Notes under the pieces: generated by a model | What the model was told of the DNA's origin: nothing | Database searches by the model: none | The model's input: the letters and a program-made list of their open reading frames with translations, nothing else | From: Burkholderiaceae bacterium | GTDB taxonomy: Bacteria > Pseudomonadota > Gammaproteobacteria > Burkholderiales > Burkholderiaceae_C | Length of the DNA stretch: 64,000 nucleotides | Direction of reading: 5' to 3' | NCBI GenBank assembly: GCA_039920745.1 | Contig: JBDSDD010000049.1 | Span: 1,524-65,523 of the forward strand | Shown: piece by piece, positions 31,590-35,660 of the stretch | Position numbering within the stretch: position 1 is the first letter of the stretch | Layout of the letters: the number at the start of each line of letters is the position of its first letter | Program-made: the position numbers and the translations under genes

Positions 31590-32273
31590 TCAAGCGGACG
31601 CAGCGGCCTCGGCGCGCAGCGCGGCCAGCATGCCGGTGGCCACCAGCACGCAGGTGCGCACGACATCGCGGCGCGGCAGCTTGTAGCCGCCGGTCATCCA
31701 CATCTTGGCCACCTGCAGGCCGGCGCCGACCAGCGCCCGGCCCAGCAGTTCGCTGCGCACCTTCGACAACTTGAGCGCGGGCTTGACGGCCGCGAGCGGC
31801 GCGATCGTGAGCTCGGCCATCACGCGCACCGATTCCTCGTAGAGCTGGTCGATCGCCTGGCTGACGCCCAGCACCTCCACCAGCACGATGCGCGCGAAGC
31901 GCGGCTCGCGCACGGTGTCGAACCAGAGTTCGTACGCGGCGGTGGTCTGGCGCTCGATGGCGGCGGCGTCGCCGCGCCATGCCTCGGAACGGATCGACTC
32001 CTCGGTCAGGCGCGCGGCAAAACCCTGCGTCAACGTGCCGTAGACCTCGGCCAGCAACGCTTCCAGCGACGCGAACGACTCGTAGAAGTAGCGGTCGGTG
32101 AGCCCGGCCGCCGCGCAGATGCCGCGCACCGTCGCGCCGCGAAAGCCCTGCGTTCCGAACAGCTCGATGCCAGCCTCGATGAAGCGCGTGCGGCGGGCCG
32201 CGACGCGCTCCTCCATGGCCAGGCCGCCGTAGGAACGGGCGGGCGCGGGGGTCGTCTTCGCAGAGGCGGGCAT
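31590..32273 (-). CDS. TetR-family transcriptional regulator
   Basis: RRTRFIEAGIELFGTQGFRGATVRGICAAAGLTDRYFYESF HTH; preceded by the SYGG motif. Confidence 0.9.
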   Translation of the reverse strand: MPASAKTTPAPARSYGGLAMEERVAARRTRFIEAGIELFGTQGFRGATVRGICAAAGLTDRYFYESFASLEALLAEVYGTLTQGFAARLTEESIRSEAWRGDAAAIERQTTAAYELWFDTVREPRFARIVLVEVLGVSQAIDQLYEESVRVMAELTIAPLAAVKPALKLSKVRSELLGRALVGAGLQVAKMWMTGGYKLPRRDVVRTCVLVATGMLAALRAEAAASA

Positions 32274-32281
32274 CCCCCTAT

Positions 32282-32310
32282 TTGACACGAAAGGGGCTGC
32301 CGCCTACGAT
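32282..32310 (+). promoter_or_regulatory. Sigma70 promoter of the SDR/BVMO operon
   Basis: TTGACA (32282-87), 17-bp spacer, TACGAT (32305-10). Confidence 0.7.
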
Positions 32311-32323
32311 CCCGATCAATATC

Positions 32324-32341
32324 TGACGACACGTGTCGTCA
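32324..32341. promoter_or_regulatory. Perfect 18-bp palindrome, probable TetR operator
   Basis: TGACGACACGTGTCGTCA between the divergent tetR and SDR genes, just downstream of the predicted -10. Confidence 0.8.
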
Positions 32342-32377
32342 CTTTTGCGACACCCCCGAACAACGAATGGAGACGGC

Positions 32378-33232
32378 ATGGCCGGCTTGAAACCCTGGAC
32401 GCTGCACGGCGGCGTCGCCGTGATCACCGGCGCCGCCAGCGGCATCGGCGCGGCGCTGGCCGTCAACCTGGCGCGGCGCGGCATGCACCTCGCGCTGGTC
32501 GACCTGAACGCGGCCGGCCTCGAGGCGACCGCGCGCCAGGTCAAGCAAGCGGGCGTCAACGTCAGCACGCACGTGATGGACGTCGCCGACCACGCGGCCG
32601 TCGCGGCGCTGCCCGCGGCCGTGCTGGCCGCGCACGGGCGCGTCAGCGTGCTGGTCAACAACGCGGGCGTCGCGCTCGGCGGACTGTTCGAGCACGTGGA
32701 CGCCGAGGACTTCGACTGGCTGATGAACATCAACTTCGGCGCCACCGTGCGCCTGACGCGCGCGTTCCTGCCGGTGCTGGCACGCGAAAGCGCGGCGCAA
32801 CTGGTCAATGTGTCCAGCATCTTCGGCATCATCGCGCCGCCCGGGCAGACGGCGTACGCCGCGTCCAAGTTCGCGGTGCGCGGCTTCTCGGAGTCGCTGC
32901 GTCACGAGTTCGAAATGACCGGCTCGCCCATCGGCGTCACCATCGTCCATCCGGGCGGCGTGCGCACGGCGATCTCCGAGAACGCGCGACTCGCCAAGGG
33001 ACTCGACAGCGCCGAGGTGGAACGCGAGCGCGCCAACTGGCGCAGCCTGCTGGCGCTGGATCCAGCCCGAGCGGCCGAGATCATCGCCGCGGCCATCGCC
33101 AGGCGCGCGCCGCGCGTACTGGTGGGCAGCGACGCGAAGGGCGCGGCCATCGTGCAGTGGCTGTTCCCGGTGACCTACTGGAAGCACGTCGCGCGCGACA
33201 TCGCGCGCCGGGTCAAGCGCCAGCCGGCCTGA
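32378..33232 (+). CDS. Short-chain dehydrogenase/reductase
   Basis: VITGAASGIG, NNAG, YAASK. Confidence 0.92.
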   Translation: MAGLKPWTLHGGVAVITGAASGIGAALAVNLARRGMHLALVDLNAAGLEATARQVKQAGVNVSTHVMDVADHAAVAALPAAVLAAHGRVSVLVNNAGVALGGLFEHVDAEDFDWLMNINFGATVRLTRAFLPVLARESAAQLVNVSSIFGIIAPPGQTAYAASKFAVRGFSESLRHEFEMTGSPIGVTIVHPGGVRTAISENARLAKGLDSAEVERERANWRSLLALDPARAAEIIAAAIARRAPRVLVGSDAKGAAIVQWLFPVTYWKHVARDIARRVKRQPA

Positions 33233-33245
33233 ACAGGAACACGAC

Positions 33246-35660
33246 ATGGCAAGCTGGCAGGCCGTAGTAGCCCGTTACATCATCCGCAAGCGCGTGCGAC
33301 CCGCGCTCGGCGACATGCGCGACCTGATGCGCGTGCGCAAGGTCATGGGACAGGCCCTGCCGCCGCCCAAGGGCGTGCGCTACACGCCGGGCACGCTGGG
33401 TGGCGTCGGCGGCGAGTGGGTCGAACAAGAAGGTGCAGCGGACCTCGGGGCAACGCTGCGTCCGACGCTGATGTACGTGCACGGCGGCGGCTTCGTCGGC
33501 TGCTCGCCGCGCACCCATCGCCCGATCACCGCGGCCTTTGCACTGCAGGGATTGCGCGTCTTCGCGCCCGACTACCGGCTCGCGCCCGAGCATCCGTTTC
33601 CGGCGCCACTGGACGACGTACTCGCCGCGTGGCGCGCACTGCGCGTACAGCACGACGCCGACTCGCCTGGGCAGCGCCTGCTCGTCGCAGGCGAAAGCGC
33701 TGGCGGCAACCTCGCACTGGCGTTGATGCTGTCGCTGCGCGACGCCGGAGAGCGCCAGCCCGCCGCGGCTGCGCTGTTCTCGCCGGCCACCGACCTGAGC
33801 GGCGGCAGCCCGTCGATCGAGGGCAACGCGGAGCGCGATCCGATGTTCCACGGCCCGTCGCTGGAGCACCTGGGCAACGCCTATCTGGGCGCGACCGGCG
33901 ACGCGACGAACCCGTTGATCTCGCCGCTGTTCGGCGACCTGCAAGGCCTGCCGCCGCTGCTGATCCACGTCGCCGCCGAGGAGGCGCTGCGCGACGACGG
34001 CCTGCGCTTCGCGCAGAAGGCGCGCGCGGCCGGCGTGCTGGTAGAGACCACCGTGTGGCCCGTGGTACCGCACGCCTGGCAGTTGCTGGCCAAGGTGCCC
34101 GAGGCGCGCCAGTCGATCGCCCGCGCGAGCGAGTTCCTCAAGACCGCGCAGCCCGAGGCCGTCGAGCACCTGGACACCGTCATCATCGGCGCCGGCTTGT
34201 CCGGCATCGGCGCGGCCGTGCACCTGCAAACAGACTTCCCCGGCCGCCGCTTCACGATCCTCGAGAGCCGCGCCGCGATGGGCGGCACCTGGGATCTGTT
34301 TCGCTATCCCGGCGTGCGCTCCGACTCCGACATGTTCACGCTCGGCTACGCGTTCAAGCCGTGGACGGACGCGAAATCGCTGGCCGACGGCCCGGCGATC
34401 CGCCGCTACATCGTCGAGACGGCGGTGGAGCACGGCCTCGACCACCAGGTGCGTCATGGCCACCAGGTCGTGCGCGCCGACTGGTCGTCGGCCGACGCTC
34501 GCTGGACGCTCGAGATCGAGCACGCAGCCGACCCCAGCGGCAACGTGCGCCGCTCCAGACTGTCCTGCAAGTTCCTGCTGGCCTGCAGCGGCTACTACAG
34601 CTACGCCGCCGGCCACACGCCCGAGTTCGCCGGCGCCGCTGGCTTCGCCGGCCGCATCGTGCACCCGCAGTTCTGGCCCGCGGACCTGGACTACGCCGGC
34701 AAGCGCGTGGTGGTCATCGGCAGCGGTGCGACGGCGGTCACGCTGGTGCCCGAGATGGCCAGGACAGCAGCGCACGTGACGATGCTGCAGCGTTCGCCCA
34801 CCTACGTTCTGTCGCTGCCCGCACGCGACGCCATTGCCGACGCGCTGCGCCGGCGCCTGCCGCGCATGCTCGCGTACCGGCTCACGCGCACCAAGAACAT
34901 CGGCGTGGCGATGCTGTTCTTCAAGCTCGCGCGGCGCTGGCCGGCCAGGATCAAGAAGAACCTGATCGGCATGGTGCGCCAGGCCCTGGGCCCGGGGCAC
35001 GACGTCGACACGCACTTCACGCCACGCTACGACCCGTGGGACCAGCGCGTGTGCTTCGTGCCCGACGGCGACCTGTTCGAGGCGATCAAGAGCGGCCAGG
35101 CCGAGGTCGTCACCGACCACATCGACACCTTCACGGCCGGCGGCATCCGCCTGCAGTCGGGCCGCGAACTGCCCGCCGACATCGTGGTCTCGGCCACCGG
35201 TCTCACGCTGAATCTGCTCGGCGACGTCGCGTTCGCGGTCGACGGCCAGGCCGTCGACTTCTCGAAGACGCTGGGCTACAAAGGGATGATGTTCAGCGGC
35301 GTGCCCAACTTCATCTACACGTTCGGCTACACCAACGCGTCGTGGACGCTCAAGGCCGACCTCACGGCCGGCTACGCGTCGCGCCTGCTCGCCTACATGG
35401 ACAAGCACGGCATCGCCAGCGCGACGCCGGTCAGCGCGCCGGACCTCGAGACCCGCCCGTTCCTCGACTTCTCGTCCGGCTACGTGCAGCGCGCGATGGA
35501 CTTCATGCCCAGGCAGGGCGTGAAGGCGCCGTGGCGGCTGTACCAGAACTATCTGCTCGACATGATCACGCTGCGCTGGTCGCGCATCGCGGACGGCAGG
35601 CTGAAGTTCGGCCGCGTGGCGCAAGAACTCAGCGGGCCGCGTCGACCAGGGCCCGGATGA
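33246..35660 (+). CDS. Fusion of HSL-family esterase and EthA-like flavin (Baeyer-Villiger) monooxygenase
   Basis: N-terminal HGGG, GESAGG, late D/H; from about aa 305 IIGAGLSG, GGTWDLFRYPGVRSDSD, FAGRIVHPQFWP, IGSGATA. Single uninterrupted ORF. Confidence 0.9.
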   Translation: MASWQAVVARYIIRKRVRPALGDMRDLMRVRKVMGQALPPPKGVRYTPGTLGGVGGEWVEQEGAADLGATLRPTLMYVHGGGFVGCSPRTHRPITAAFALQGLRVFAPDYRLAPEHPFPAPLDDVLAAWRALRVQHDADSPGQRLLVAGESAGGNLALALMLSLRDAGERQPAAAALFSPATDLSGGSPSIEGNAERDPMFHGPSLEHLGNAYLGATGDATNPLISPLFGDLQGLPPLLIHVAAEEALRDDGLRFAQKARAAGVLVETTVWPVVPHAWQLLAKVPEARQSIARASEFLKTAQPEAVEHLDTVIIGAGLSGIGAAVHLQTDFPGRRFTILESRAAMGGTWDLFRYPGVRSDSDMFTLGYAFKPWTDAKSLADGPAIRRYIVETAVEHGLDHQVRHGHQVVRADWSSADARWTLEIEHAADPSGNVRRSRLSCKFLLACSGYYSYAAGHTPEFAGAAGFAGRIVHPQFWPADLDYAGKRVVVIGSGATAVTLVPEMARTAAHVTMLQRSPTYVLSLPARDAIADALRRRLPRMLAYRLTRTKNIGVAMLFFKLARRWPARIKKNLIGMVRQALGPGHDVDTHFTPRYDPWDQRVCFVPDGDLFEAIKSGQAEVVTDHIDTFTAGGIRLQSGRELPADIVVSATGLTLNLLGDVAFAVDGQAVDFSKTLGYKGMMFSGVPNFIYTFGYTNASWTLKADLTAGYASRLLAYMDKHGIASATPVSAPDLETRPFLDFSSGYVQRAMDFMPRQGVKAPWRLYQNYLLDMITLRWSRIADGRLKFGRVAQELSGPRRPGPG

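Follow-up and report, generated by a model that had tools for sequence, protein, structure and literature searches.

We analysed a 64,000-nucleotide stretch of a Burkholderiaceae genome (the window; all coordinates are counted from its first letter), the source being a draft assembly of 94 contigs and 5.3 Mb. It contains a TetR-family repressor gene that stands divergent from a gene for a short-chain dehydrogenase/reductase (SDR), which is followed by one open reading frame (ORF) joining an esterase of family IV, the hormone-sensitive lipase (HSL) family, to a type I Baeyer-Villiger monooxygenase (BVMO). The genes, domains and regulatory elements of this unit are as follows.

31590..32273, minus strand: TetR-family repressor gene (tetR), 227 amino acids from the conserved ATG, with a TetR_N match
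32282..32310, plus strand: sigma-70-like promoter TTGACA-N17-TACGAT for the SDR/fusion operon, 10/12 matches
32324..32341, no strand: candidate operator, the 18-bp palindrome TGACGACACGTGTCGTCA (TGACGAC-N4-GTCGTCA), proposed from its position and conservation
32342..32353, plus strand: 5' untranslated region element CTTTTGCGACAC, conserved, directly after the palindrome and resembling a third half-site
32378..33232, plus strand: classical SDR gene, 284 amino acids, with an adh_short match
33246..35660, plus strand: esterase-BVMO fusion, 804 amino acids in one ORF
33246..34145, plus strand: esterase domain of family IV/HSL, residues 1-300, with an Abhydrolase_3 match
34146..34166, plus strand: inter-domain connector, approximately residues 301-307, placed by alignment
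34167..35660, plus strand: type I BVMO domain, approximately residues 308-804, with FMO-like and Rossmann Pfam matches from residue 308

A preliminary description of this DNA, made from its letters, had recognised a TetR gene and, reading away from it, an SDR gene with an 804-residue ORF behind it, and had read the last of these as an HSL esterase bearing HGGG and GESAG joined to a monooxygenase with the BVMO fingerprint FxGxxxHxxxWP. The ORFs and Pfam matches agree on every gene and all of these motifs are present, which confirms, as far as sequence can, a real TetR-linked operon of two genes (SDR and fusion). The SDR stop codon and the start of the fusion gene lie 13 bp apart on the same strand, and AGGA precedes the fusion start. 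Dehydrogenase, BVMO and esterase activities are thus encoded together, an arrangement conserved in the genus. Two gene starts were set by alignment of the genus loci. The ORF listing takes tetR to a GTG at 32288; the ATG conserved in the genus is at 32273. For the SDR, a GGAGA ribosome-binding site and its ATG are conserved across the genus, and the GTG at 32333 is an extension made by the ORF caller.

The N-terminal part of the fusion matches Abhydrolase_3 over residues 75-279 (185.4 bits against a cut-off of 25), with HGGG at 79-82 (33480..33491) and GESAG at 149-153 (33690..33704). Its putative catalytic triad is Ser151/Glu246/His276, the spacing of which equals, on alignment, that of the published EstD11 triad Ser144/Glu238/His268 (PMC7905190). 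The alignment column of Glu246 also holds a deposited Glu-to-Gln variant of a close relative of Est8. A sequence search of the PDB gave Est8 (6y9k), EstD11 (7at0) and E40 (4xvc) as the nearest solved esterases (E 1e-52 to 1e-59; 36-40% identity), and Foldseek aligned the domain to Est8, EstE5, EstD11 and E40 with TM-scores normalised to the target (TMt) of 0.87-0.92. Est8, EstD11 and E40 share with this domain the HGGG motif, the Ser-Glu-His triad and the fold; unlike the fusion, they are stand-alone enzymes of about 300 residues. The best NCBIfam model for the N-terminal part is NF058651, a GESAG-motif HSL subfamily, at 204 bits, below its curated cut-off of 430.

The BVMO domain, about 495 residues long, carries both Rossmann motifs, GAGLSG at 315-320 (34188..34205) for flavin adenine dinucleotide (FAD) and GSGATA at 492-497 (34719..34736) for NADPH. 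The fingerprint that the preliminary description had reported is located at residues 467-478 (34644..34679), where FAGRIVHPQFWP fits FxGxxxHxxxW[P/D], and a second, longer BVMO motif is also intact at 346-360 (34281..34325), where GGTWDLFRYPGVRSD fits [A/G]GxWxxxx[F/Y]P[G/M]xxxD. PAMO, STMO and OTEMO match the domain in the PDB search with E 1e-24 to 1e-28 over residues 304-545. This match spans only the first 230-240 or so residues of the domain, and the C-terminal half is without a match to solved BVMOs. The length of the domain and this unmatched half are indirect hints of an EthA- or AlmA-like enzyme. Foldseek aligned the domain to the same three enzymes and to CHMO with E 1e-24 to 1e-26 and a TMt of 0.61-0.71.

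That the two domains form one natural protein is supported by comparison within and beyond the genus. Among 13 further genomes of the genus, 12 match the fusion query, 11 of them across both domains. The order TetR/SDR/fusion is kept in 10 of these 11 loci, the contig of the eleventh being too short to show it. All 11 keep an uninterrupted two-domain frame. An unbroken frame with all four motifs occurs in 15 loci, and the stops flagged among the genome matches fall past the natural C-terminus. Some homologues have insertions of 20-36 residues in the connector, where none of the 15 loci has a stop. In a collection of 5.8 billion proteins, the best 120 clusters, 61-88% identical, carry both Pfam domains without exception (120/120). 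Across 69 fusion homologues the HGGG residues (H79-G82), Glu246, both Rossmann motifs, G469, W477 and P478 are invariant, while Ser151, His276 and His473 are each kept in 90% or more.

These comparisons bear on a trivial explanation, namely that a stop was lost or a frameshift introduced in the draft metagenome-assembled genome (MAG), so that the fusion is an artefact of assembly or gene calling, or else that one of its domains has decayed. A draft of 94 contigs invites that suspicion. It is countered by the 15 independent loci with an unbroken frame and all four motifs, by both domains in 120/120 of the best database clusters at 61-88% identity and by the presence of the same architecture in the complete replicons of Deinococcus radiodurans R1 (described below), and decay is countered by the conservation of the catalytic residues. 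We rejected an assembly artefact because of this recurrence in loci, database clusters and D. radiodurans replicons, and consider the explanation as a whole extremely improbable. The preliminary description had looked to other assemblies for a check on the fusion and had named a stop between the domains or an inactive domain as what would overturn it; homologous loci have unbroken frames, the fusion recurs across the genus and both active sites are conserved.

No solved chain found with Foldseek spans both an esterase and a BVMO domain. An AlphaFold2 model of the fusion, built on the 69-sequence alignment, has a mean predicted local distance difference test (pLDDT) score of 87 and a predicted TM-score (pTM) of 0.89. 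For a protein of approximately 300 plus 500 residues, a pTM of 0.89 points to domains packed in a definite orientation towards each other. This predicted fixed packing is the sole hint that the product might be channelled from one domain to the other.

The wider distribution of the BVMO was followed by scanning species-representative genomes with conserved BVMO peptides. Most of the genes found encode stand-alone BVMOs, about 60% identical to the C-terminal domain of the fusion, and their hosts belong to the Alpha-, Beta- and Gammaproteobacteria, Myxococcota, Actinomycetota, Acidobacteriota, Bacteroidota and Chloroflexota. SDR orthologues (54-71% identical) adjoin the BVMO in two further fusion loci (L013, L014) and in four stand-alone loci (L052, L076, L080, L092), and the wider cluster of SDR neighbours covers 13 of the 80 loci fetched. 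In seven loci the stand-alone orthologue is adjoined by a hydrolase of a different family, Abhydrolase_1.

The same three partners are found joined in single proteins. A search of 1.84 billion cluster representatives, combined with Pfam scans, returned BVMO relatives 41-58% identical to the domain studied here in several fused forms. Abhydrolase_3-BVMO fusions with the hydrolase N-terminal, the order seen in the window, include P0121, P0130, P0169 and P0237, and BVMOs fused to Abhydrolase_1 at either end include P0125, P0138, P0139 and P0126. BVMO-SDR fusions, with a C-terminal SDR of the same SDR family, are represented by P0134, P0135, P0162 and dozens more clusters, for example from Sandaracinaceae MAGs; the SDR domain of P0134 and the window's SDR share 53% identity. 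Triple fusions also exist, as BVMO-SDR-Abhydrolase_3 (P0144, P0300) and as BVMO-SDR-Abhydrolase_1 (P0147, P0323 on a 1.46-Mb contig, P0326, P0328, P0331, P0334, P0335). They are 1070-1200 residues long and occur, for instance, in Ornithinimicrobium MAGs. In the literature searched, which left most subscription journals outside, we found no mention of natural BVMO-SDR or triple fusions.

That one BVMO clade has been joined independently to a single SDR family and to two ester-hydrolase folds unrelated to each other is a classical Rosetta-stone sign of a shared pathway. An alcohol-ketone-ester-acid module, which the preliminary description had proposed for this locus, gains support from these gene neighbourhoods and from the repeated independent fusions among three families.

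Two other fusions of the same survey stand apart. P0236, a 1046-residue singleton on a 4.5-kb Logan contig, joins a BVMO and Abhydrolase_1 to BioW (6-carboxyhexanoate-CoA ligase). The combination hints that pimelate for biotin synthesis might be reached by way of a BVMO and a hydrolase; being a singleton, the protein may be an artefact. P0123 and three further members of its cluster (842 residues) pair a BVMO of the same clade with a C-terminal FGE-sulfatase (formylglycine-generating-enzyme-like) domain, an unexpected combination.

The fusions also help to weigh a different role for the flavoenzyme, which could mainly oxygenate heteroatoms (in sulfides, thioamides or amines) in the manner of EthA, with the esterase and SDR acting elsewhere on a xenobiotic and no relay from ketone to ester. 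Promiscuous S-oxygenation is known from type I BVMOs of the EthA group, and EthA acts on thioamide prodrugs. In ethR/ethA, moreover, a TetR repressor is divergent from the monooxygenase under its control, and the layout of the window, compared by arrangement, mirrors this. Against such a role stand the two intact BVMO-specific fingerprints and the repeated independent fusions of the BVMO to two unrelated alpha/beta hydrolase families and one SDR family, triples among them, a pattern that makes little sense if the hydrolase does not act on what the BVMO produces. We consider heteroatom oxygenation as the main function improbable.

The SDR matches adh_short with 170 bits and has the TGxxxGxG, NNAG and Ser-Tyr-Lys elements of classical SDRs, as TGAASGIG at 17-24, NNAG at 94-97, Ser146 and YAASK at 160-164. 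In classical SDRs an Asp closing strand beta-2 indicates preference for NAD(H), and hence the oxidative direction. Strand beta-2 of this SDR ends in Asp (LALVDLN), and by that rule the enzyme is probably NAD-preferring and works in the oxidative direction.

The repressor contains a TetR_N domain (38 bits against a cut-off of 24) and is 75-87% identical and syntenic within the genus. Outside it, tetR genes 34-38% identical to that of the window stand divergent from stand-alone BVMO orthologues in Cystobacter (L017), Bradyrhizobium (L030, L044, L056) and Cupriavidus (L083), which made it possible to compare the intergenic regions over a long distance.

The promoter TTGACA-N17-TACGAT that the preliminary description had noted is present at 32282..32310 and is the only match in the 400-bp region scanned, where shuffled sequences give an expectation of 0.1 sites. 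Its -35 hexamer is the same in each of the 11 genus loci aligned. Ten of them also retain the -10 hexamer, in L008 with a shift of one base, and L012 has lost it by deletion. The palindrome TGACGACACGTGTCGTCA lies at approximately +7 to +24 of the predicted transcript, in a road-block position. It is the sole perfect 18-bp palindrome of the window, and at zero mismatches it is unique in its own 5.3-Mb genome. Eight one-mismatch copies elsewhere in the genome are probable chance matches in GACGAC-rich coding DNA. In the 11 genus loci the 7-bp arms TGACGAC and GTCGTCA are invariant, the central 4 bp vary (ACGT, GTGC, ACGC, GAGC, AGGC) and the flanking spacers diverge.

Sites of the same kind were found between the tetR and BVMO genes of the more distant loci. 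Cupriavidus L083 has TGACAACCTATGTTGTCA, again perfectly palindromic, with G changed to A symmetrically in its two arms, the three Bradyrhizobium loci have TGACAAG-N4-(A/G)TTGTCA, and Cystobacter L017 has an 18-bp site of the form TGAC-N10-GTCA. In these Cupriavidus, Bradyrhizobium and Cystobacter loci there is usually another such site, which overlaps the -35 hexamer TTGACA. Together with the genus sites they give an operator consensus of TGAC-N10-GTCA with 7-bp arms. It is its position, its uniqueness in the genome and its conservation, not its palindromy alone, that make the operator credible. The perfect 18-bp operator called at 32324-32341 in the preliminary description is accordingly present as a palindrome, and its assignment to TetR is supported by phylogenetic footprinting, in which the site appears as a feature conserved along with the regulator.

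The element CTTTTGCGACAC that follows the palindrome has a GCGACA core in 10 of the 11 genus loci, with variable preceding bases. In L002 (about 600-650) a core GCGACAC occurs three times through duplication of a GCGACACAACGACGT unit.

We propose, with a probability of roughly 70%, that the locus encodes a TetR-controlled unit of an SDR and a bifunctional esterase-BVMO that runs from alcohol through ketone and ester to acid plus alcohol. The proposal builds on the gene order, the intact motifs, the conservation of fusion and operator and the recurrent linkage of three enzyme families; from these we infer the order of reactions, the class of substrate (a ketone that is aliphatic or otherwise lipid-like), the repression of the operon and its induction, and any direct transfer of the ester between the domains. 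TetR would bind TGACGAC-N4-GTCGTCA just downstream of the TTGACA/TACGAT promoter and block transcription of the SDR and fusion genes until a lipophilic ligand released it. The SDR would then oxidise a secondary alcohol to a ketone, and the BVMO domain, dependent on FAD and NADPH, would place an oxygen atom beside the carbonyl, turning the ketone into an ester. Finally, the N-terminal esterase domain, using Ser151/Glu246/His276 and the HGGG oxyanion hole, would cleave the ester to an acid and an alcohol.

Several observations weigh against this proposal. Most stand-alone BVMO orthologues are without an esterase or SDR within 3.5 kb, from which we conclude that the coupling of three enzymes is frequent, not obligatory. 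No hydroxylase by which the secondary alcohol could be formed is present in the operon, its neighbours being an AlkB-type 2-oxoglutarate/Fe(II) (2OG-Fe(II)) gene and glycoside hydrolases. In the same literature search, again with most subscription journals outside it, no characterised esterase-to-BVMO fusion was found. A minus-strand sigma-70 scan of the promoter region recognised no promoter for tetR, and by eye there are only weak candidates. The palindrome on its own is not unusual either, with one observed against 1.4 expected per 64 kb in a first-order Markov simulation; by itself, in GC-rich DNA, it does not exceed chance, and its stand-alone statistical significance was rejected.

The same chemistry could serve another purpose, the remodelling of endogenous envelope or storage lipids with hydroxy or keto groups in place of the catabolism of external alcohols and ketones. 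The gene content parallels the mymA locus of Mycobacterium tuberculosis (monooxygenase Rv3083, esterase LipR Rv3084 and downstream genes through Rv3089), for which such a role is proposed and which is described as required for the composition of mycolic acids and for an intact envelope (PMC10272862). Compared by gene content, mymA resembles the window in that a flavin monooxygenase adjoins an esterase, and differs in that the two are separate genes activated by VirS, not governed by a TetR repressor (PMC10272862). The best NCBIfam match of the window's TetR is to FasR, a regulator of lipid metabolism, which would fit such a role; at 32 bits against a cut-off of 330 the match is weak and far below threshold. 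The operon has neither a hydroxylase nor a transporter, and the BVMO clade is widespread in many phyla as a single, housekeeping-like gene, both of which suit a function in endogenous lipid metabolism. The fusion, by contrast, is present in only 2 of 301 genomes of the order and looks accessory, not core. On balance we think lipid remodelling unlikely, though it deserves more weight than heteroatom oxygenation.

Going beyond the proposed alcohol-to-acid unit, we offer one broader and rather doubtful conjecture. SDR, BVMO and hydrolase may be an ancient three-enzyme kit for one specific lipid-like substrate that recurs across phyla, variously fused, and that in several lineages is placed under a conserved TetR with a TGAC-N10-GTCA operator. 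Rigid packing of the domains could pass the ester from the flavin site to the serine site, and the BioW fusion would hint that the product is sometimes a dicarboxylate such as pimelate.

The architecture itself is not new. Natural BVMO-esterase fusion proteins known from genome analysis are mentioned in a 2018 review by Aalbers and Fraaije (PMC6563810), which at that point cites van Beilen et al. 2003. Like the protein of the window, they combine in one polypeptide a type I BVMO and an ester hydrolase that could cleave the BVMO product (PMC6563810). The preliminary description had implied that the fusion is rare, and in this it was wrong, since the architecture is common in databases, is mentioned in that review and is present in D. 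radiodurans R1. The protein of D. radiodurans, WP_010884002.1 (DR_RS15615, 833 residues), is encoded on megaplasmid MP1 (L097, NC_000958.1 33878..36379) and consists of Abhydrolase_3 followed by a BVMO. It has the same domain order as the window protein, with HGGG and GESAGG, and shares 48% identity with it across 749 residues, the figure for the BVMO portion being 55%. Its connector is about 20 residues longer, its esterase part is much more divergent and its gene, unlike that of the window, has no adjacent TetR or SDR gene. Its annotation says no more than 'alpha/beta hydrolase fold domain-containing protein', and we found no characterisation of it in the literature searched. D. radiodurans R1 is a tractable model organism for this architecture.

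The pathway logic is likewise that of a textbook. Subterminal alkane oxidation and ketone catabolism through a dehydrogenase, a BVMO and an esterase are summarised in PMC11644497. That route has the same three activities and the same logic, with separate genes, whereas the window places two of the activities on one polypeptide, has no linked hydroxylase and adds a TetR regulator. The recurrent fusions are strong comparative evidence for a dehydrogenase-BVMO-hydrolase relay, the principle of which is itself established. The novelty of the esterase-BVMO fusion is modest, and the by-products of the analysis are more interesting, namely the family-wide repetition of two- and three-way fusions and a putative TetR operator conserved across phyla.

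Both may be of practical use. Engineers have built alcohol dehydrogenase-BVMO and BVMO-esterase fusions by hand. The family described here offers ready-made natural versions of such proteins, including BVMO-SDR fusions and triples, and the matched repressor with its defined 18-bp candidate operator could serve as a ketone- or ester-responsive switch.

A tree of BVMO domains unites the fused proteins in a single clade (SH-aLRT support 95) within Burkholderiales and places it inside the widespread clade of stand-alone BVMOs. Their sister group consists of stand-alone genes of Cupriavidus, Ramlibacter and Aquabacterium and of two Bacteroidota. One stand-alone BVMO gene of Rhizobacter (L029:3399-4967), with a porin gene upstream, nests within the fused clade and probably reflects secondary loss of the esterase domain. 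The unfused counterpart is found in a gammaproteobacterial MAG (L015:3453-5939), where a single stop codon separates an HSL esterase gene from a BVMO gene that follows it in frame, as would be expected of the precursor of a fusion that arose by loss of a stop codon. When 301 genomes were sampled evenly across the order, the full-length fusion turned up in only two, this genome and one other; it is accordingly restricted to certain lineages, although metagenomes contain it in abundance.

Another family of the order contains an 824-residue frame of the opposite domain order, BVMO-like and then esterase-like (G028:C12:212780-215146). It is 29% identical to the BVMO domain of the window and 42% to the esterase domain, and looks like an independent fusion.

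The genes flanking the three-gene unit on both sides are unrelated to it. The AlkB-type 2OG-Fe(II) gene, which is DNA/RNA repair-like, lies at 30931..31584 on the minus strand, 5 bp downstream of tetR, and the two genes probably share a transcript. This neighbourhood is kept in three of four genus genomes checked (L093-L096), two of which have about 0.8 kb of additional intergenic DNA. On the other side, a gene for a glycoside hydrolase of family 5 (GH5) is convergent to the fusion gene, and the 3' ends of the two overlap by 32 bp (35629..35660). The final 12 or so residues of the fusion run past the ends of most relatives, and pLDDT is below 50 there.

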